Shown here: piece after piece, positions 55,078 through 63,831 of the stretch
Numbering within the stretch: the stretch's first letter is position 1
How the letters are laid out: every line of letters starts with the position of its first letter
From: Chloroflexota bacterium
GTDB taxonomy: Bacteria; Chloroflexota; Dehalococcoidia; Lucifugimonadales; UBA3495
Assembly (NCBI GenBank): GCA_028875055.1
Contig: JAPPGG010000069.1
Location: 1,140-65,139 of the forward strand
Reading direction: 5' to 3'
DNA length: 64,000 bases
Notes under the pieces: generated by a model
Told to the model about the DNA's origin: nothing
What the model saw: only the letters and a program-made list of their open reading frames with translations
Databases searched by the model: none
Program-made: the position numbers and the translations under genes

Positions 55078-56637
55078 ATGTTTGATTTGCTGATCGACCG
55101 GGGCCGCATTGTTGATGGTACCGGGCAAACCTGGTTCAGGGGCAGTGTCGGCGTTGAAGGAGATACCCTGACCGTATTGCGGGGCGACACATCAGCGGTG
55201 GCCGCGGACCGGGTTATCAAGGCGGACGACAAAATAATCTGCCCCGGCTTCATAGATATGCATTCCCACTCCGACTTGATGCTCCTTACCGACCCGGCCA
55301 ACGAGGCGAAGCTCAGGCAGGGCGTCACCACCGACGCCCTGGGAATGGACGGCCTTTCTTACGCTCCCACTTCCCCGGCCCACCTCGAAGAGCTTCTGAC
55401 GTACCTGGCCGCGATCAACGGCACTCCCCCGCCGGACGTGCGCTGGGGCCGGGTGAGCGAGTTCCTGGACCTGCTGAACGGCCGAGTTTCCTGTAACGTG
55501 GTCTATTTTGTTCCTCACGCCGCCATCCGGGTAGAGGCTATGGGCTGGGCGGACCGCCTTCCCACCGACGACGAAATTGTCAGGATGCAGGAACTGGCCC
55601 GGCAGGGAATGCGGGACGGCGCCTTCGGTTTCTCGACTGGACTGACCTACCCTCCAGGCGCATACAGCGACACTGACGAACTCGTGGCCGTATGTGAGGC
55701 GATCAAGGACTTTGGCGGTTTCTACATGACCCACGCCCGCTACAGCCTGGGTGATCGACTTCTGGACCCCTTCCGGGAAGCCCTGAACGTCGGGCAGCGC
55801 AGCGGCGTTCCAGTACATATCTCCCATTACCACAGTCCCGTGGAAGGACTGGGAGTCCGCATGGTGTCGCTGGTGGATGAAGGCAGGGAAGCCGGCATCG
55901 ACGTAACCTTCGACCAGTATCCCTATCCGGCTGCCAGCACGGTGCTGCATTCGCTGCTGCCCTATTGGGTACACGCCGGGGGGCCCAGTCTTCTCTTCCG
56001 CCGCATCCACGAGCAGAGTATCCGGGACGAAATTGGCGACACGGTCGAGCCCCAGTGGGGCCTCAGCCTGGACCACTACATCTTCAGCCATATCGGGTCC
56101 AAGAAAAACAAGGAATGGGAGGGTCGCTCCCTGGTTGACTTGGCCGAACACCAGGGCAAGCGCATGGTTGACGCCATCTGCGACCTGCTCATCGAGGAGA
56201 ACCTGGAAGTCGCCTTCGTTGCCCGCACCGGGAATCCAGAGAACATTCGGAACATTGCAAGGCATCCGGCCCAGATGGTCGGGTCCGACGGCCTGCTGAC
56301 CGGCGACTACCCCAACCCCCGTACCTACGGCACCTTCCCCTACGTGCTGGGGCAGTTCGTGCGCGAAGAAGGCCTGTTCCCCCTGGAGGAGGGTGTGCGA
56401 AAAATGACTTCCTACCCGGCTCAGCGCCTGGGACTGAAAGACCGGGGCATCATCTGGGATGGTATGAAAGCGGACCTCGTGGTGTTCGACCCGGAGCGGG
56501 TGGAGGCCACGGCCACCTTTGAAGACCCCAAACAGTACCCGGTGGGCATCGACTACGTAATCGTCAATGGGCGAGTCGTCATTGACGATGGGGTGCATAC
56601 CGGAGCAATGGCGGGCAGGGCCCTGCGTTCCCAGTAG
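55078..56637 (+). CDS. N-acyl-D-amino-acid deacylase (D-aminoacylase)
   Basis: CPGFIDMHSHSD, GFSTGL.YPPG, HISH, DQYPY, GSDG, PR.YGTF, ADLVVFD. Confidence 0.92.
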   Translation: MFDLLIDRGRIVDGTGQTWFRGSVGVEGDTLTVLRGDTSAVAADRVIKADDKIICPGFIDMHSHSDLMLLTDPANEAKLRQGVTTDALGMDGLSYAPTSPAHLEELLTYLAAINGTPPPDVRWGRVSEFLDLLNGRVSCNVVYFVPHAAIRVEAMGWADRLPTDDEIVRMQELARQGMRDGAFGFSTGLTYPPGAYSDTDELVAVCEAIKDFGGFYMTHARYSLGDRLLDPFREALNVGQRSGVPVHISHYHSPVEGLGVRMVSLVDEGREAGIDVTFDQYPYPAASTVLHSLLPYWVHAGGPSLLFRRIHEQSIRDEIGDTVEPQWGLSLDHYIFSHIGSKKNKEWEGRSLVDLAEHQGKRMVDAICDLLIEENLEVAFVARTGNPENIRNIARHPAQMVGSDGLLTGDYPNPRTYGTFPYVLGQFVREEGLFPLEEGVRKMTSYPAQRLGLKDRGIIWDGMKADLVVFDPERVEATATFEDPKQYPVGIDYVIVNGRVVIDDGVHTGAMAGRALRSQ

Positions 56638-56665
56638 CATTGGAAGGGAATTGAAGGGAAAGCAA

Positions 56666-56733
56666 GGCGCCGGGGAACGTTCCCCGGCGCCAGTAGTTCT
56701 GGACCTGGTAGTTCAGGACTGGTAGTTCAGGAC
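56666..56733. repeat. Perfect 26-bp palindrome followed by three 14-bp tandem repeats
   Basis: GGCGCCGGGGAACGTTCCCCGGCGCC; CAGTAGTTCTGGAC, then TGGTAGTTCAGGAC twice. Confidence 0.8.
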
Positions 56734-56750
56734 GAGAATAGCGGGCCAGT

Positions 56751-57524
56751 CTATCGGCCCTTCCAGACCGGGGCCCGCTTCTCGGCAAAGGCCCGTACGC
56801 CTTCCTGAGCGTCCTCGGTTTCCAGAATCTCGTTCCGCTTCTGTTGGGCGAAGTCCACCCTTTCCTGCATCCCCATTTCAGAACCCTTGATGGATGCCTC
56901 CTTGATGGCGGCCAGAGAGAGAGGGGCGTTGGCGGTGATCATTCGGGCCATCTCTTCGGCCCTGGGCATCACTTCCTCGGGCTGCACCACATAATTGACC
57001 AGCATAAGGTCCAGCGCCCTCTGAGCGTCCACGAATTCCCCGGTGAACAGGAATTCAAAGGCGATGTTCCTCGGAACCACCTGGGAGAGCAATGCGGGCC
57101 CGCTGACCGAGGAGATTCCCCGCTTGGCCTGGGGCCAGCCGAACCTGGCTTCCGTGGAAGCGATTCGAATGTCGCTGCCCAGCGCGATGCCGCATCCCTG
57201 GGCCAGGCAGATTCCGTTAATGGCGGAAATGATCGGCTTGTATATCTTGGACTGCTCCACATAAAGGTCGCCCGTGGTTACACCTTCGTTGGCCTGGTCG
57301 TTAGCCATGGCCACCAGGTCATGGCCGGTGGAGAAAGCGCGACCCCGCCCCGTTACGATGGCGCAGCGCACTTCCGGGTTGGTTTTCACATCCTGAAACG
57401 ACTCCCACAGCAGCTGACGCATATTGGGGTCAATGGCGTTCAGCTTTTCAGGTCGGTTCATCGTAATGTAAGCGATGCCTTCCTTGATTTCGTAGATTGC
57501 TTCGGGTTCGGTCTGTGTGGTCAA
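56751..57524 (-). CDS. Enoyl-CoA hydratase/isomerase
   Basis: NRPEKLNA, AFSTGHDL, KPIISAING, SDIRIA, FAEKRAP.WKGR. Confidence 0.92.
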   Translation of the reverse strand: MTTQTEPEAIYEIKEGIAYITMNRPEKLNAIDPNMRQLLWESFQDVKTNPEVRCAIVTGRGRAFSTGHDLVAMANDQANEGVTTGDLYVEQSKIYKPIISAINGICLAQGCGIALGSDIRIASTEARFGWPQAKRGISSVSGPALLSQVVPRNIAFEFLFTGEFVDAQRALDLMLVNYVVQPEEVMPRAEEMARMITANAPLSLAAIKEASIKGSEMGMQERVDFAQQKRNEILETEDAQEGVRAFAEKRAPVWKGR

Positions 57525-57611
57525 GATATTCTCCTCCTAAGTTGTTGGCGCAGGGGAAAGCAGTCCAGGCGTGAACCTGTCCGCTCCCCGCCGTACCCAG
57601 TCCTGTTTTTC

Positions 57612-58886
57612 CTAAATTATTCGAGACCCGGTCGGCTTCGTCCCAATCACTCCGCCCGCTTCCAGGTCATCAATTTCCTCGGCGGCAATTCCCAGCAATT
57701 CCCGGTAAATCTGGCGGTTGTGCTGGCCCAGTGTGGGTGACGGCCAGTGGACCTGCCCCGGGGTTTTCGACATGCGCCAGGCGAACCCCTGGTACCACTT
57801 GGGACCCACCCGAGGATGGTCCACGTAGTTGAATGTGCCCCGGTCGGTGTAATGCGGGTTCTCCAGCAGATCAGGGCCCCGCAGCACCGGACCCGCCGGG
57901 ACCCCCTTGCTCTGCAACAGGCTGGTCACTTCCCACATGTCCTTTTCGGAAACCCATGCTCCAAGGAGCGCGTCCAGCTCCCGCCGGTGCTGGAGCCTGT
58001 CCCGGTTGGTAGCAAACCGGGGATCCTGAGCCAGTTCCGGCTGTCCCAGGGCCTCCGCCAGGCCGCGCCACTGGTCGTCGTTGGTAACCCCGATAGTCAC
58101 CCAGCGGTCTTCACCCTTGCAGGGGTAGGCATTCTGGGGCGCGAACCAGGGGGAGTGGTTGCCCATGCGCTGCGGTTCCTCAGCGCTGATCTGGTAGGCC
58201 ACAACCTCGCCGCCGATCAGGGCCACCGCCGACTCCTGCTGGGAAACGTCCACGAACATGCCCTTTCCCGTGCGCCGCCGATATCGCAGCGCGGCCAGCA
58301 GCACCCCCGCGGCGTGGGACCCGGTAATGGGGTCGCCGTGATTTATGCCCGATTTCATTGGCCCGTCGTTGACATATCCCGTCATATGGGCCATGCCCGA
58401 AAGCTGTTCCTGCCCAATCCCATAGGCCACATAATTCTGCCAGGGACCGCTGTTGCCGAAGGCAGGCATTGAGGCGTAAATCAGGTCCGGCCGAATCTGG
58501 CGCAGGGTCTCGTAGTCGTACCCCAGGCGGGTGAGGCTGCCCTGCCGGAAATTTTCCACCACCACGTCGCTGATGGACACCAGTTCCTCGAAAACCCGCC
58601 GGCCCTTCTCCTCTGTCAATTCCAGGGTGATACCGTACTTGCTCATGTGCAGGCAGTTGAACCACCCGTTTCGGTTCCAGGCCTCTTCCCCGGGATCGGA
58701 ATCAGGGTATGCCGCGATACCCGGGGCGGGAGCTACTGGTCCCCGGTGCGAGTCATAGACCCGCATGGATTCCATCTTGATGACCTCTGCCCCCATGTCG
58801 GCCAGCAGCTTTGTGCAGTAGGGGCCGGCCCAGATCCTGGACAGGTCGAGAATGCGAAAGTTTTTCAGGGGTTGTGCCGCGCTCAA
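57612..58886 (-). CDS. Family III CoA-transferase, catalytic-type subunit
   Basis: ILDLSRIWAGP, LADMGAEVIK, ENF, HGDPITG (Asp); TTG start abuts the upstream stop. Confidence 0.9.
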   Translation of the reverse strand: MSAAQPLKNFRILDLSRIWAGPYCTKLLADMGAEVIKMESMRVYDSHRGPVAPAPGIAAYPDSDPGEEAWNRNGWFNCLHMSKYGITLELTEEKGRRVFEELVSISDVVVENFRQGSLTRLGYDYETLRQIRPDLIYASMPAFGNSGPWQNYVAYGIGQEQLSGMAHMTGYVNDGPMKSGINHGDPITGSHAAGVLLAALRYRRRTGKGMFVDVSQQESAVALIGGEVVAYQISAEEPQRMGNHSPWFAPQNAYPCKGEDRWVTIGVTNDDQWRGLAEALGQPELAQDPRFATNRDRLQHRRELDALLGAWVSEKDMWEVTSLLQSKGVPAGPVLRGPDLLENPHYTDRGTFNYVDHPRVGPKWYQGFAWRMSKTPGQVHWPSPTLGQHNRQIYRELLGIAAEEIDDLEAGGVIGTKPTGSRII

Positions 58887-60089
58887 CTAGATGACTCCTT
58901 CGGCAAAAAGACGTTCCACTCCCTGGCTGTCGTAGCCCAGTTCTCCCAGGACCGACAGGTTGTGCTCCGCCAGCAGCGGCGCTCTCCGGTACACCCAGGG
59001 TTCAATCTCCTTGGAGTGAGGGCTGATGGGAGGACCGGGATAGCGAAAACGGCCGGCTATGGGGTGGTCTAGCTCAACGAAATAGTCCCGGGCCACCAGC
59101 TGCTCCATTTCCAGGATGTCCTGCATTCCGGCCACGAAGGAGAATCCAAGGCCGTGGTCCTGCCCTGCCTTGAAAATGTCCACCTTGTCGTGTTCCAGCA
59201 GCCAGGGCAGCATCAGGGCGTCCACCTCGTCCGCGTTGAGCAGGCGACCCTGCCGGGAAGCGAACCGGGGATCCGCCAGTTCCTCGCTCTCCATGATCCT
59301 GGCCACCTCGGGCCAGTTCTGGTCCGGACCAGCAATAATGCCCACAAACCCGTCCTGGCAGGGGTATATGCCCCAGGCCGCGCGCCCGTACCCCCGGTTA
59401 CCCACCCGGGTGAACTCCACGCCCGAGTAGCTGTACTGCATCAGGGCGTTTTCCAGGACGTTGGTGGCATATTCCGCGATGGCCAGGTCTATGTGCTGTC
59501 CCTCGCCAGTGTCTTCTGCGCAAAACAGGGCAGTCATCGTGGCGACAAAGGCGTTCTGCCCGGCGCCCAGCTGCGAAAGGGGCGCCCCTTCTTTCAGGGG
59601 AGGTTCTTCGGGCTCGCCCGTAATGTTCATCAGGCCGCCGGTGGCATAGAGGTTGATTTCGTCAGCCTTCCAGTCCCGGTAGGGGCCGGTCTGGCCGTAG
59701 TTTGAGACCGAGGTCATCACCAGGACAGGGTTAACCCTGCTCAGGGAGTCGTAGCCCAGACCCAGGCGTTCCATCACTCCCGGCGAGAAATTCTCGACCA
59801 CAATGTCGGCGTTTTCCACCAGCCTCAGCGCCAGCTCTCTGCCCTTTTCCGTTTTGAGGTCCAGGGTAATGCTCTTTTTGGAGGTATTCAGATAGAGGAA
59901 CCAGGCTCCGCTTTCGCCTGGTTGACGCTCGCTGGCGAAAGGGGGAATTCCCCGTATGGGGTCCCCGACGCCCGGCCGCTCAATCTTGATGACTTCCGCG
60001 CCCAGGGTGGCCAAGAGCTTGGTGCAGTAGGGGCCGGCAAAATGGTGGGTAAAGTCGATTACCTTTACACCTTCGAGCAATCCGGGCAT
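58887..60089 (-). CDS. Family III CoA-transferase, subunit lacking the catalytic Asp
   Basis: FAGPYCTKLLA, NTSKKS, YGQTGPY; LSQLGAG at the Asp position. Confidence 0.9.
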   Translation of the reverse strand: MPGLLEGVKVIDFTHHFAGPYCTKLLATLGAEVIKIERPGVGDPIRGIPPFASERQPGESGAWFLYLNTSKKSITLDLKTEKGRELALRLVENADIVVENFSPGVMERLGLGYDSLSRVNPVLVMTSVSNYGQTGPYRDWKADEINLYATGGLMNITGEPEEPPLKEGAPLSQLGAGQNAFVATMTALFCAEDTGEGQHIDLAIAEYATNVLENALMQYSYSGVEFTRVGNRGYGRAAWGIYPCQDGFVGIIAGPDQNWPEVARIMESEELADPRFASRQGRLLNADEVDALMLPWLLEHDKVDIFKAGQDHGLGFSFVAGMQDILEMEQLVARDYFVELDHPIAGRFRYPGPPISPHSKEIEPWVYRRAPLLAEHNLSVLGELGYDSQGVERLFAEGVI

Positions 60090-60769
60090 GGGGCGAGTCT
60101 CCTGGTGTGGCCCGCAAAGACTGGGAACGAACAGGCCGCTTGCGAGGCGGATTCCCCCTAAATCGGGCGAAAATCAGGTTGCATTGTTGCATTGGGTTGC
60201 CGGAATTGCAAGGGCAAAAGGGTATTTTGAAGCGGCCCGGTAGCGACCGATGCCACCTGGTTAGACTTGCAGGGCGGGCCCTCGGTTTCAGTCCCTCCGT
60301 TACCCTTTCGTTCTATCTTGCCGGGAAGGCAGCTATGAGGGGGTGACGTCCGTGGAATGTTGATTGGGCCCAATTCCCATTTTTCCGTCTCCCCTCCGCT
60401 GCTTATCCCGGCTGCCCTGCCTGCACCACCAATACCGGTCATGATCAGTGGAAGAGCATGAGTTGCGCCAGTTGGTATTCCCGGAAACTCTCCAGGGCAG
60501 CCATTTGCGCTCAGGTTGGCTTAAGTCCTGGGTGTTGCACGGGCGGTTAACCCCGTCACGCTGGACCAACCCACTTCCTCAGCCGTCGGCCCCACAGGTC
60601 CAGATGGCGGAGGATTATTGGAATTAATGGAGTTCTTGCTTTCGAGTACCTCTTCACAGTTGCAGTCTGAGCAGTTGGTCCGGAGGAACAAACGACCCGC
60701 GCAGGGTACTGTCACGCCATCCTTTATGCTATTCTGCCCCCGAGACTAGTTCAGGGATGGACGACAAAG

Positions 60770-61930
60770 ATGGAGCGACCTATTTTTCAACCCGTTGGCA
60801 CGCCGGTGGAAAGCCTGGATACCCCGGCCCTGGTAATTGATCTTGATATCATGGAATCCAACATAGACACACTGCATGACTCTTTCCGCCAGTTGCTGCC
60901 GGACGGTGAGACGCCGCAAACGGACGCCTGCGTCAGGCCCCACGTCTCCTGCCACGGCTGTCCCGAAATTGCCTTGCGCCAGGTGTCGGCCGACGAAGGT
61001 CTCATAGAAATGGCTCCCAGTTGCACTGGGGGAATCGCCGTTGCTTCCCTGGGGGAGGCGGAAGTATTTGCGTCGGCGGGTTTCAATGACATCCTCATCA
61101 CCGGCCGCGCTATTACCGGGCCCAAGATTCGCCGCTTGCTGGCCCTGGCCCGGGACAACTGGGTCTTTCAGGCAGTGGACAACCTCCGGAACGTGCAGAA
61201 CCTTTCCGAGGCTGCCGCTGCTGAGGATGCCATCCTGGGGATCTTGGTTGATATCGATGCCGGTTATGGTCACGGCGGGGTGAGTTCCGCCACCGATGCC
61301 CTGGCGCTGGCCCGGGCAGTGGAGGACGCCCCTGGTCTCGCGCTGATGGGACTGATGGCCTACGAGGGGCCCTACTCAACTACCAGCCAGCCCGAACTGC
61401 AGGAAGAGTCCCTGCGCCGACTGCGGGTGGTAAACGATGCCAGGGAACAGATAGAAGGCGCGGGCATCGAAATTACGCTGGTAAGCGCCGGAAGTACCTA
61501 CAATTATGATGTGGCGGCCAGGATACCCGGCGTTACCGAAGTTATGGCCGGGGTCTATCCGCTGATGGACGGACAGATGTCTCGACTTCGCCCGGAACTG
61601 CAGCCAGCCGCCAGGGTGTTGTCCACGGTCATCAGCCACCCGGTGCCCGGGCGGGCGGTGGTAGATGCCGGTCATAAGACCACGGGACCGGACTTTGGAG
61701 TTGCCGCGCTGGATGACATTCCCGGCGCCGTGGCCACCCGGTTCAGCGCCGAGCATGGCATTCTGGAGCTGGAAGGGGAAGCTACCGGCGAATTTAACCC
61801 CAACGACAAGGTGTGGCTGGTCCCCTACAACCTGTCCCTCTGCGTGAACCAGTTTGATTACTTCCGCGCCGTTAGGGACGGCAGGCTCGTCGGATACTGG
61901 CCCATATCTGCCAGGGGCAGACTGGACTGA
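60770..61930 (+). CDS. D-threonine aldolase/DSD1-like fold-type-III protein lacking the PLP lysine
   Basis: LDTPALVIDL, RPHVSCHGC (expected RPHxKTHK), AYEG, DAGHK, SAEHG. Confidence 0.85.
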   Translation: MERPIFQPVGTPVESLDTPALVIDLDIMESNIDTLHDSFRQLLPDGETPQTDACVRPHVSCHGCPEIALRQVSADEGLIEMAPSCTGGIAVASLGEAEVFASAGFNDILITGRAITGPKIRRLLALARDNWVFQAVDNLRNVQNLSEAAAAEDAILGILVDIDAGYGHGGVSSATDALALARAVEDAPGLALMGLMAYEGPYSTTSQPELQEESLRRLRVVNDAREQIEGAGIEITLVSAGSTYNYDVAARIPGVTEVMAGVYPLMDGQMSRLRPELQPAARVLSTVISHPVPGRAVVDAGHKTTGPDFGVAALDDIPGAVATRFSAEHGILELEGEATGEFNPNDKVWLVPYNLSLCVNQFDYFRAVRDGRLVGYWPISARGRLD

Positions 61931-61988
61931 CCGAAGTCCCGGCCAGGGACATTCAAGATGCTTGAAGCCAGACCACGGAGGACCTGAA

Positions 61989-63092
61989 ATGCACGATCTG
62001 TATCGCCCTAAGCCAGGAACGCCTGTAAGTGAACTGGATACCCCTTGCCTCATCCTGGATATGGACGCCCTGGACCATAACATGGATGTAATGGCCAGCT
62101 TTTATGAAGGTCGCCACAGCAAGCTGAGGGGCCACAGCAAGAACCACAAGACTCCGGCCATAGCGTTGCGACAGATACGTCGCGGCGGCACCGTGGGCGG
62201 TGTGTGCGCAGCCAAGGTGTCGGAAGCCGAGGTCATGGTGCATGGTGGGGTTCCCAGCGTGTTCGTCACCAGCGAAGTGGTGGACCCCGCAAAGATTGAG
62301 CGGCTGTGCACCCTGGCCCGGGACGCTGAAATCCTGGTGGCCTGCGACACGGAGGCTAACGCCCGAGACATTTCCACCGCCGCCAACAAGCTTGGCGTGA
62401 ACGTTGGGGTTGTCATTGAGCAGGAGACCGGCCTGGTCCGTTGCGGTGTCCAGGATGTTGAACCCGGCGTGGCCCTGGCCAGACTGATTGATTCCCTGCC
62501 TGGGCTGTCATTCAAGGGTGTGATGAGCCACCAGATGATGTCTGAACCCTCTTCGGACCGGGAAGACCGGGTTACCGAGGCTCACAGGTTGATTCAACCG
62601 GTGCTGGACCTGCGAGAGGCGGTTCTCGCCGCGGGCCTGCCGGTGGAAATAATCTCCACGGGCGAGACCTGGAGTTACGACGTGGCCGGTGAAATGCCCG
62701 AGGTCACCGAGGTCCAGGGGGGCAGCTACCTGGTAATGGAAACCGGCTACGAGTACATGCCCGACTTCCTGTTTGCCGGCAAGGTGTTGAGCACCGTAAT
62801 CAGCGCCCCGAAGGTGGGTATTGCCGTGGGTGACGCCGGCGCACGCGCCGTGGGCGGCCTGAAGGGACTGCCCCGGGTTGAGGGTCGTCCTGGCGTGGAG
62901 GCTGTGGATATGGACCCCGACCGCACCGTCTTCCAGGTTGCCGAGGGCGTAACCCTGGAGGTGGGTGACCAGATCACTCTCATACCTGGCCAGCAGGACG
63001 CCATGGTCAGCCGGTGGGACCGGTTTGTGGGCATCAGGAACGGGGTCGTTGAGTCGGTGTGGGACATCCAGGCCAGGGGGTGCCACAACTAG
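61989..63092 (+). CDS. D-threonine aldolase/DSD1-like PLP enzyme
   Basis: LDTPCLILD, RGHSKNHK, AKVSEAE, RCGV, EVQGGSY; ATG at 61989 after GGAGG. Confidence 0.88.
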   Translation: MHDLYRPKPGTPVSELDTPCLILDMDALDHNMDVMASFYEGRHSKLRGHSKNHKTPAIALRQIRRGGTVGGVCAAKVSEAEVMVHGGVPSVFVTSEVVDPAKIERLCTLARDAEILVACDTEANARDISTAANKLGVNVGVVIEQETGLVRCGVQDVEPGVALARLIDSLPGLSFKGVMSHQMMSEPSSDREDRVTEAHRLIQPVLDLREAVLAAGLPVEIISTGETWSYDVAGEMPEVTEVQGGSYLVMETGYEYMPDFLFAGKVLSTVISAPKVGIAVGDAGARAVGGLKGLPRVEGRPGVEAVDMDPDRTVFQVAEGVTLEVGDQITLIPGQQDAMVSRWDRFVGIRNGVVESVWDIQARGCHN

Positions 63093-63159: not shown

Positions 63160-63831
63160 TCAGTCGTTGAGGCCGGGCCAGGCCGGCACAGACAGCAGCT
63201 CCTTGAGCTTGTTTGCGCTGCTGTGGGGCCCGGAAAGTACGGGCACCGGGCAAACTTGCTGCAGCCGGTTCAGCGCCGACGCCATGGAGAACTGCCCCAG
63301 CAAAACGGCGTCCACCCGTTCGGACAGGTCCAGAACCAGCTCTTCCAGTCGCCGATTGAAGGCGTCCTCACCCTGGGTGCGGTACAGGGGGATCAGTTCC
63401 TCGGCAAAGCAGAGTTCAGTCTCGATGGTTCGGCCCTGGTCTTCCGCCGTTAGCTGCAGGTAGTAGTCCGAGTCCCTGAGGGTTGCTCCCACCGAGGCAA
63501 TAATTCCTATCCTCTTTCCAGCCCTTACCGCCTCTTCCATGACCGGGCTGTAGGACGAGACCACCGGAACGTCCACCAGGTCTTTGGCGGTTTCCACCAC
63601 GGGTGCATAGACTGAGCAGGCCAGGCCGATGGCGTCCGCCCCATATTCCTCGCAGTAGCAGATGAGCTGGCTCATACGGCGCCGCAACTGGGGTGTAATG
63701 TTGCCCTTGAAGTCTATGAACAGGGCCTCGTCCAGCAGGTTTATCAGTTCCGCCTCGGGGAAAACCTCCCCGAAAGCCACCTTGACGGGCGGCACTGACT
63801 CGGCCAGTGCATGAATCATAACAACGCGCAT
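63160..63831 (-). CDS. Asp/Glu/hydantoin racemase superfamily protein
   Basis: IHAL, NLLDE.L, AIGLACS, RIGIIAS, LGQFSMA, PVLS. Confidence 0.8.
   Translation of the reverse strand: MRVVMIHALAESVPPVKVAFGEVFPEAELINLLDEALFIDFKGNITPQLRRRMSQLICYCEEYGADAIGLACSVYAPVVETAKDLVDVPVVSSYSPVMEEAVRAGKRIGIIASVGATLRDSDYYLQLTAEDQGRTIETELCFAEELIPLYRTQGEDAFNRRLEELVLDLSERVDAVLLGQFSMASALNRLQQVCPVPVLSGPHSSANKLKELLSVPAWPGLND

Follow-up and report, generated by a model that had tools for sequence, protein, structure and literature searches.

A 64,000-nucleotide (nt) stretch of DNA from a Chloroflexota bacterium (assembly GCA_028875055.1, contig JAPPGG010000069.1, positions 1,140 to 65,139), the whole of which we call the window, contains two adjacent paralogs on the forward strand, here termed gene 1 and gene 2, that have kept complementary halves of the active site of one family of pyridoxal 5'-phosphate (PLP) enzymes. 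In our view, the two genes probably encode two subunits of a single heterodimeric fold-type III PLP enzyme, which would have arisen by duplication and complementary degeneration and would have one composite active site. In the scenario that we propose, a homodimeric ancestor from the D-threonine aldolase (DTA)/D-serine dehydratase family duplicated within Dehalococcoidia (SAR202 and kin), and the two copies then lost opposite halves of the symmetric active sites at the dimer interface. Gene 2 would supply the barrel side of the site (Lys51, Arg151, Thr227, Gln243, Ser246, Tyr254 and the Gln335/Asp337 metal site), and gene 1 would supply only two beta-domain loops, Gly301-His-Lys303 and Ala327-Glu-His329, crossing into the site of its partner. 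In such a heterodimer, the gene 2 barrel and the loops of gene 1 would together make one full site, with a single PLP predicted to be bound in it, whereas the barrel of gene 1 and the loops of gene 2 would make a second, dead site. The evidence consists of the residue pattern of the two proteins, its conservation, the linkage of the genes and the phylogeny of the pair; from it we infer that the two proteins physically heterodimerize, that the dimer would bind a single PLP and that its activity would depend on gene 1.

Both products belong to one well-defined family. They score above the Pfam cut-offs for Ala_racemase_N (PF01168) and D-ser_dehydrat (PF14031), share 32% identity with each other (E 3e-58) and align over almost their full length with the structures 4V15, 6QKB and 7DIB. 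The best PDB match of gene 1 is 4V15 (E 2.9e-42, within a range of 1e-38 to 3e-42); the matches of gene 2 range from 2e-53 to 4e-62 and include 6QKB (E 4e-62) and 4V15 (E 1.5e-55). With the NCBIfam model for BhcC (NF045642), gene 1 scored 184.3 bits and gene 2 scored 250.6, far under the cut-off of 690 bits; thus the names "3-hydroxy-D-aspartate aldolase" and "alanine racemase" that databases attach to such proteins are unjustified. No third member of the DTA/DSD1 family was found in the source genome.

The reference for our residue assignments is the D-threonine aldolase AxDTA (4V15), as presented in those parts of its structural report that describe the active site (PMC4401734). There, Lys59 forms the Schiff base and Tyr187 stacks on PLP; the pyridine nitrogen is bound by Gln249, the phosphate by Thr233, Ser252 and Tyr260, and O3' by Gln81 and Arg157, the latter also holding the substrate carboxylate; Mn is liganded by His347 and Asp349, and His193 is the proposed base. 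The AxDTA dimer is head-to-tail, with active sites at the interface and the metal site beside PLP (PMC4401734). The initial annotation of the window had given head-to-tail dimers with interface active sites as a known trait of fold-type III enzymes in general. Importantly for the present case, loops 295-298 and 319-323 are supplied to each site by the second protomer, i.e., in trans (PMC4401734). The initial annotation had regarded action of these loops in cis as fatal to a composite site, and the origin of the AxDTA loops in the second protomer removes this objection. We mapped residues by HMMER alignments to 4V15 together with multiple alignments of relatives. On these alignments, the AxDTA trans loops correspond to the G-L-K-S and I-N-D-E-H stretches, and their equivalents are DAG-H-K-T and S-A-E-H in gene 1 and DAG-A-R-A and D-P-D-R in gene 2.

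In AxDTA numbering, gene 1 shows the changes K59S, Q81A, R157H, Q249M, S252V, Y260M, H347N and D349S and retains Y187, T233, G295, K297, E322 and H323. Only the Thr is left of the five PLP/substrate contacts Arg157, Thr233, Gln249, Ser252 and Tyr260, and the His193 position is occupied by Thr. The initial annotation had stated that gene 1 lacks the Schiff-base Lys and the metal motif and keeps the beta-domain motifs DAGHK and SAEH; the coordinates and the alignment to 4V15 agree with both statements, and the two motifs align with the AxDTA trans loops. The gene 1 subunit is probably PLP-free. Of 8000 candidates scored in a protein search with gene 1, 1287 were relatives at E <= 1e-10; the best 120 of them are 57-96% identical to it over the full length. 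In these 120 relatives and the query, position 60 is Ser in 121/121 rows and never Lys, H302, K303, S326, A327, E328 and H329 are invariant (121/121), and the former metal motif reads P-Y-N-L-A/S. Among 80 genome-locus rows of gene 1, described below, position 60 is Ser in 63, Thr in 12, Gly in two, Ala in two, Phe in one and Lys in none, and H302, K303, A327, E328 and H329 are present in 80/80. This goes well beyond chance.

The loss of the catalytic Lys and of most PLP, metal and substrate ligands might suggest that gene 1 is a pseudogene copy in decay since a tandem duplication, and pseudogene-like drift was indeed among the outcomes that the initial annotation named as speaking against a composite site. 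We give this reading practically no credence, and the selection and conservation data refute it: gene 1 is an intact frame of 386 codons with dN/dS values of 0.05-0.20 (Nei-Gojobori, 13 pairs), and besides its close orthologs and their invariant motifs, Lys-less partners can be found down to approximately 36% identity to gene 1. By these measures, gene 1 is a conserved gene under purifying selection, not a relic. A ten-residue segment around the former Schiff-base position, R-P-H-V-S-C-H-G-C-P, is almost invariant in the close gene 1 clade and is not so in the deep Lys-less clade. This ex-active-site segment may be structural, as the model of the complex presented below has residues 60-61 in contact with gene 2.

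Gene 2 retains K59, K62, R157, T233, Q249, S252, Y260 and D349 and carries K297R, E322D and H323R. All five PLP/substrate contacts are present (R151, T227, Q243, S246 and Y254 in its own numbering); Ala is found in place of Gln81, which is the commonest family residue at this position (79/102), and Pro occupies the His193 position. The retention of the Lys and of part of the metal motif, and the replacement of the beta-domain motifs by DAGAR and DPDR, had both been noted in the initial annotation and were confirmed by the coordinates and the alignment. Of the metal pair, His347 and Asp349 (Cys in dehydratases), only the Asp is left in gene 2, and neither residue is left in gene 1. The P, Q, Q, D and A of the metal-motif region are invariant in 77/77 gene 2 orthologs, as is His181, which replaces Tyr187. 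The dN/dS values of gene 2 are 0.02-0.13 (Nei-Gojobori, 13 pairs). The features of the locus are listed in Table 1; all eight motifs and both codons named in the initial annotation were found where it had placed them.

Table 1. Features of the gene pair and its surroundings in the window (aa, amino acids; ORF, open reading frame; CoA, coenzyme A)
Feature	Coordinates	Strand	Basis or remark
Amidohydrolase (+), enoyl-CoA hydratase (-) and two tandem family III CoA-transferases (-)	55078-60089		Upstream genes
Gene-free spacer, 680 nt	60090-60769		Between divergent CoA-transferase gene and gene 1
Gene 1, Lys-less DTA/DSD1-family protein, 386 aa, ATG start	60770-61930	+	ORF, Pfam, 4V15 match
Gene 1 segment R-P-H-V-S-C-H-G-C-P, aa 56-65	60935-60964	+
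Gene 1 Ser60 codon TCC at the AxDTA Lys59 position, within RPHVSCH (aa 56-62)	60947-60949	+	HMMER alignment to 4V15
Gene 1 DAGHK, aa 299-303, trans loop 1 (AxDTA 293-297), with family-invariant Lys K303	61664-61678	+
Gene 1 SAEH, aa 326-329, trans loop 2 (AxDTA 320-323)	61745-61756	+
Gene 1 PYNLS, aa 352-356, degenerate metal motif; N354/S356 at His347/Asp349	61823-61837	+
Intergenic spacer, 58 nt	61931-61988	+	Shine-Dalgarno GGAGG at 61977-61981
Gene 2, Lys-bearing, predicted PLP-binding catalytic subunit, 367 aa	61989-63092	+	Translation, Pfam, PDB matches
Gene 2 Lys51 codon AAG, Schiff-base Lys (AxDTA Lys59), in HSKNHK (aa 49-54)	62139-62141	+	Lys in 77/77 orthologs
Gene 2 DAGAR, aa 282-286, relaxed trans loop 1, Arg at Lys297	62832-62846	+
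Gene 2 DPDR, aa 309-312, relaxed trans loop 2, Asp-Arg at Glu322-His323	62913-62924	+
Gene 2 PGQQD, aa 333-337, altered metal motif; Gln335 = His347, Asp337 = Asp349	62985-62999	+
Asp/Glu/hydantoin-racemase-like gene, 223 aa, convergent	63160-63831		Downstream gene

To see how the key residues are distributed in the family at large, we searched 1.84 billion cluster representatives (50% identity) with gene 1, which gave 5254 matches at E <= 0.001 and 349 at E <= 1e-30. From the best 150 representatives, 122 with lengths of 330-460 aa were used and 28 fragments or long forms were dropped; with 25 locus-derived proteins and the two window proteins, the family alignment contained 149 rows. The Lys-less clade (27 rows counted, omitting P0257, placed in another part of the tree, and P0141, with the same sequence as L088g1) has K59 in none and R157 in 9 rows but K297, E322 and H323 in 26 each, with scattered residues at the other ex-active-site positions. 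The 16 rows of the gene-2-like clade all have K59, R157 and D349, with K297 in two, E322 in five and H323 in 11; all 16 have His-Gln at 187-188, 11 have Arg at 297 and nine have Asp at 322. The remaining 102 Lys-bearing rows have K59, R157 and E322 without exception, K297 in 99 and H323 in 97. Arg occurs at position 297 in one of these 102 members, so that it appears to be rarely tolerated there. In this alignment, the residues that are invariant in the family divide cleanly between the Lys-less and gene-2-like clades.

In a FastTree phylogeny of the 149 rows, 28 Lys-less rows formed one clade (support 99), the gene-2-like clade was supported at 99 at its inner 17-row fork and at 92 at the 18-row fork, and the two clades were sisters (SH-like 94). 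A short IQ-TREE search (LG+G4, 82 rows) gave SH-aLRT values of 99 for the Lys-less clade, 73 for the gene-2-like clade and 94.8 for their union. Thus, the two clades are likely sisters. The Lys-less clade holds 21 of the 122 full-length cluster representatives. A 22nd Lys-less representative, P0257, falls outside, within the His-x-Cys dehydratase-like part of the tree, and has Ser at 59, Thr at 297 and Phe at 323; it is an independent loss of the Lys or a pseudogene.

The two genes are linked across genomes. When one genome per species was scanned with gene 1 patterns, 307 loci matched, and the best 80, which were kept for locus counts, all come from Dehalococcoidia, SAR202 or Chloroflexota metagenome-assembled genomes. 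In 79/79 evaluable loci, the next gene after gene 1, in the same orientation, is a gene 2 ortholog (65-97% identity); three of these are cut within gene 2 by the end of the contig, and the 80th locus (L080) ends 194 nt past gene 1. No other gene family is common to more than 29/80 loci by ORF clustering, and no universal neighbor other than gene 2 was found in the 80 loci. The reverse test used a gene 2 search of a class sample of 401 genomes, 101 of which have a family member (G244 included). A gene-2-like protein with 45-53% identity is present in 16 of them besides the source genome; a second family member accompanies it in 16/16 cases and is adjacent and upstream in 15/16. In all seven genomes examined by sequence, the partner is Lys-less, with Glu, Ser or Asp instead, has lost the metal pair and keeps G-x-K and S-A-E-H; the other nine were judged by coordinates. 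These counts cover, in both directions, the co-occurrence that the initial annotation proposed to check. Singletons in the examined genomes of the class are canonical at all key residues. The pair was not found outside the class in a phylum sample (401 genomes, 93 with a match at E <= 1e-40) among the 29 best loci besides the source locus, all 29 of which are Lys-bearing canonical singletons at the inspected residues.

Two loci in the class show other arrangements. One genome (G192:C31, L085:2963-5392) has a tandem pair in the canonical part of the tree in which both genes retain the Lys, PLP ligands, trans loops and metal site; judging from these residues, it is a duplication without degeneration. 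In another (L084:1419-4088, G360:C20), the Lys-less gene lies inside an 889-aa stop-free frame and may be fused to, or run on from, the upstream gene.

We modeled the complex from 31-row alignments for each chain with one PLP added. The heterodimer reached an ipSAE of 0.93 in 3/3 runs versus 0.00 for the best control; the mark used is passed by 116/157 solved complexes and 2/215 mismatched pairs, and a pass speaks for compatibility of the two chains, not for binding. The runs had at least 94% of contacts in common, with a partner pLDDT of at least 92. The modeled interface is head-to-tail and canonical: gene 1 residues 299-304 and 326-329 would pack against K51, 149-155 and 337-338 of gene 2. 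On the opposite side, residues 285-286 and 310 of gene 2 would meet residues 354-357 of gene 1 in the mirror-image contacts that make up the dead pseudo-site. Conservation at this interface in the Lys-less clade is 0.71 for the beta-domain loops, 0.50 for the barrel side and 0.65 for the metal-motif strand versus 0.54 overall, and the loop value was equaled by none of 5000 random sets. In the gene-2-like clade, the corresponding values are 0.59, 0.69 and 0.82 versus 0.67 overall. Conservation at the modeled interface is thus asymmetric in the direction that would be expected for a composite site. Taken together, four independent lines of evidence, the trans loops, the linkage, the reciprocal conservation and the heterodimer model, support the central proposal of the initial annotation, an active site formed by the barrel of gene 2 and the beta-domain of gene 1.

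Several observations weigh against this reading. Gene 2 has not lost its half uniformly: position 297 is Arg in 60 and Lys in 17 of 77 close orthologs, His is found at the 323 equivalent in 19/77, and His323 is kept in 11 of the 16 rows of the gene-2-like clade. The replacements in its loops are partly conservative (Arg for Lys297), so a gene 2 homodimer with residual activity is conceivable. Roles for K297, E322 and H323 are not named in the AxDTA paper, which in its active-site description treats only the whole loops and the amide of Asp321 (PMC4401734), and our literature search for roles of Lys297, Glu322 and His323 gave noisy results and nothing usable. The model score may reflect memory of the family, because homodimers of this family have already been solved; the interface used for the conservation scores was taken from the model, not from a structure; and conservation counts overstate the number of independent events, as related sequences are not independent. 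Linkage has exceptions as well: in G154, a genome that looks complete, the gene-2-like gene (L089, C1:74000-82000) and the Lys-less gene (L090, C1:2154500-2161700) are approximately 2 Mb apart, so absolute linkage is not required, and in G274:C19 (L129:51-1022) there is an extra gene-2-like copy without a gene 1 neighbor. This extra copy, 323 aa long, stops prematurely in a tail rich in His and is without the C-terminal metal motif; a GNAT-like gene lies upstream of it, and it is possibly decaying. Finally, no fused gene 1-gene 2 protein was detected among 7999 long candidates, which is weak evidence.

These observations bear on two alternatives. According to one, gene 2 is a self-sufficient homodimer and gene 1 is an accessory protein (a regulator, stabilizer or ligand sensor) that binds gene 2 or acts close to it and donates no catalytic residues. 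The Arg at the Lys297 position of gene 2, the orthologs that keep Lys or His, and the strong conservation of the R-P-H-V-S-C-H-G-C-P segment in the close gene 1 clade, which could be a ligand site, all fit this alternative. We nevertheless hold it to be quite improbable. The deep Lys-less clade is hypervariable at the former active site and keeps the trans-loop residues in 26/27 rows; the beta-domain loops are the most conserved part of the gene 1 interface and its barrel side is not raised; and the rest of the family has Lys297 in nearly every member and Arg in a single one, which suggests that Arg is seldom tolerated. According to the other alternative, the two proteins are independent, gene 1 having acquired a new PLP-independent function and the genes being neighbors through a shared pathway. 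Strong purifying selection on gene 1, the long life of the Lys-less clade with its many full-length representatives and the separation of the genes in G154 would be in keeping with it, but throughout the clade the barrel of gene 1 shows no new motif that recurs consistently, the conserved part of gene 1 is what the partner site would need, gene 2 is the sole universal neighbor, and the model shows the canonical dimer interface. Independence of the two proteins is, in our estimate, very improbable, and a heterodimer with one composite site is the reading that we carry forward.

What would such a site do? The initial annotation took the His-to-Gln change at the metal ligand as a hint of altered chemistry. 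On the one hand, this Gln is fixed in all 77 close orthologs; on the other hand, the wider gene-2-like clade also has His (3/16) or Tyr (2/16) at the His347 position, so the hint is partly supported. The absence of His193 from both genes, together with His-Gln in gene 2 where the family has Tyr187-x, is a stronger sign of altered chemistry, and one that the initial annotation had not named. With the missing His193, His-Gln at 187-188 and Gln-Gln-Asp at 347-349, the predicted site is set apart from that of every characterized member. Canonical DTA chemistry is not expected, since neither gene has the proposed base His193 and gene 2 carries His in place of Tyr187. Retention of the contacts to PLP and the carboxylate and of the Asp that binds the metal makes metal-assisted chemistry with a D-type beta-substituted amino acid the default expectation; our tentative suggestion is metal-assisted chemistry at C-alpha/C-beta of a D-configured beta-substituted amino acid, of the retro-aldol or beta-elimination type, and not the canonical DTA reaction.

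Nothing resembling a terminator was found inside the 58-nt spacer. The spacer in related loci is mostly 54-84 nt (46 tabulated values). The reading frame of gene 2 is already open from TTG 61854 through 63092; we took ATG 61989 as the start, because GGAGG lies 7 nt before it and ATG stands at the aligned start in 77/80 ortholog rows. Inside gene 2, one terminator-like site was observed versus 2.8 expected by chance. No promoter-like sites were found for the pair. No Rfam match above the gathering score was found upstream of or within it, and a riboswitch or other RNA there was considered and rejected, as there were only three sub-threshold matches (E 0.17-0.32).

In the window, the pair is a stand-alone two-gene unit, and the gene-free spacer upstream of it contains neither an Rfam match above threshold nor a sigma-70-like promoter match. 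NCBIfam gives only generic names to the flanking CoA-transferases, enoyl-CoA hydratase and amidohydrolase and no name to the racemase-like gene. Each gene of this neighborhood is found again in between 16 and 29 of the 80 loci, the most distant ones included (gene 1 at only 50% identity). Related loci with this neighborhood have a formate-tetrahydrofolate ligase gene and a B12-binding MetH-like fragment further downstream.

A second type of neighborhood was found in 35/80 loci (L046:5641-8983 and 34 more among L019-L067), where the pair is flanked by a C-terminal piece of nitrile hydratase beta on one side and a nitrile hydratase alpha gene on the other; the genes share a strand and are approximately 50-100 nt apart. 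In two further, cut loci, one of these flanks is present. By targeted tblastn, each of the two nitrile hydratase genes is present in 36/80 loci. This arrangement suggests co-transcription of the pair with a cobalt-type nitrile hydratase in that lineage. Upstream of these nitrile-hydratase-linked pairs, a polysaccharide-deacetylase-type gene and a PIN-domain gene are often seen. The source genome has a nitrile hydratase alpha gene on a contig different from that of the pair. A far-reaching reading, which we regard as unlikely, would make the pair the first natural obligate fold-type III heterodimer, with a single remodeled site (His stacking on PLP, a Gln/Asp metal site and no His193) that catalyzes neither the DTA nor the D-serine dehydratase reaction, coupled to nitrile-to-amide conversion in lineages where the pair is inserted between the beta and alpha genes of the cobalt-type nitrile hydratase. 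If this were true, the substrate might, for example, be a nitrile, amide or acid of the beta-hydroxy-alpha-amino type derived from dissolved organic matter in the sea.

Among SAR202-type Dehalococcoidia the pair is widespread, as the number of genome loci matched by gene 1 patterns indicates, and these bacteria are believed to break down recalcitrant organic matter in the sea, chiral compounds among it (PMC6946804). Public records name both subunits (P0003, P0086, P0275, P0283, P0378 and others) "alanine racemase", "3-hydroxy-D-aspartate aldolase" or "D-serine deaminase-like", and for one gene 2 ortholog the record bears the name of a sponge species. None of these three enzyme names can apply to the Lys-less subunit. 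There is a practical side to this: attempts to express gene 2 by itself for biocatalysis or for functional screens would probably fail.

The closest known systems are the enzymes of the same two-domain family, including AxDTA (4V15), BhcC (6QKB), the D-serine dehydratase 3ANU and the D-threo-3-hydroxyaspartate dehydratase 3WQC (PDB E values of 1e-38 to 4e-62 with the pair). The DTA, BhcC and DSD1 enzymes are one-gene homodimers with two equivalent sites, whereas in the present pair each paralog keeps one half; the pair also differs from them in the absence of His193 from both genes and in the His and Gln that gene 2 has at the positions of Tyr187 and His347. Our full-text literature searches, in which most subscription journals were not covered, found no heteromeric member of the DTA family or of fold-type III. 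Within that fold type, mixing two active-site mutants of ornithine decarboxylase (Lys and Cys), one altered in the barrel Lys and the other in the residue acting in trans, is reported to restore one active site per dimer. These engineered heterodimers are a laboratory construct in the decarboxylase subfamily, and the present pair would be their natural counterpart.

Partnerships with a dead paralog are already known elsewhere, namely in serine palmitoyltransferase, SerTA and trypanosomatid deoxyhypusine synthase. In eukaryotic serine palmitoyltransferase (LCB1/LCB2), as in the pair, the subunits are homologous and the PLP lysine is present in only one of them; unlike the pair, this enzyme is fold-type I, membrane-bound and eukaryotic, has small regulatory subunits and is unrelated in sequence. 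SerTA (Ser4/Ser5) from Serratia sp. ATCC 39006 resembles the pair in that its genes are bacterial and lie in tandem, and one of them has no catalytic Lys; the active form of the enzyme is the complex, and its activity depends in part on residues of the inactive subunit (PMC11726168). However, SerTA is a fold-type I heterotetramer in which Ser4 is truncated at both ends, and it comes from a single gene cluster, whereas both subunits of the present pair are full length and belong to a large, old clade. In trypanosomatid deoxyhypusine synthase, a eukaryotic enzyme that unlike the pair does not use PLP, a dead paralog activates an impaired catalytic paralog in a heteromer (PMC3663545). Among such partnerships, the present pair would be an especially clear case of subfunctionalization from a symmetric homodimer to an asymmetric heterodimer, with half-sites that are complementary and clades that are likely sisters.

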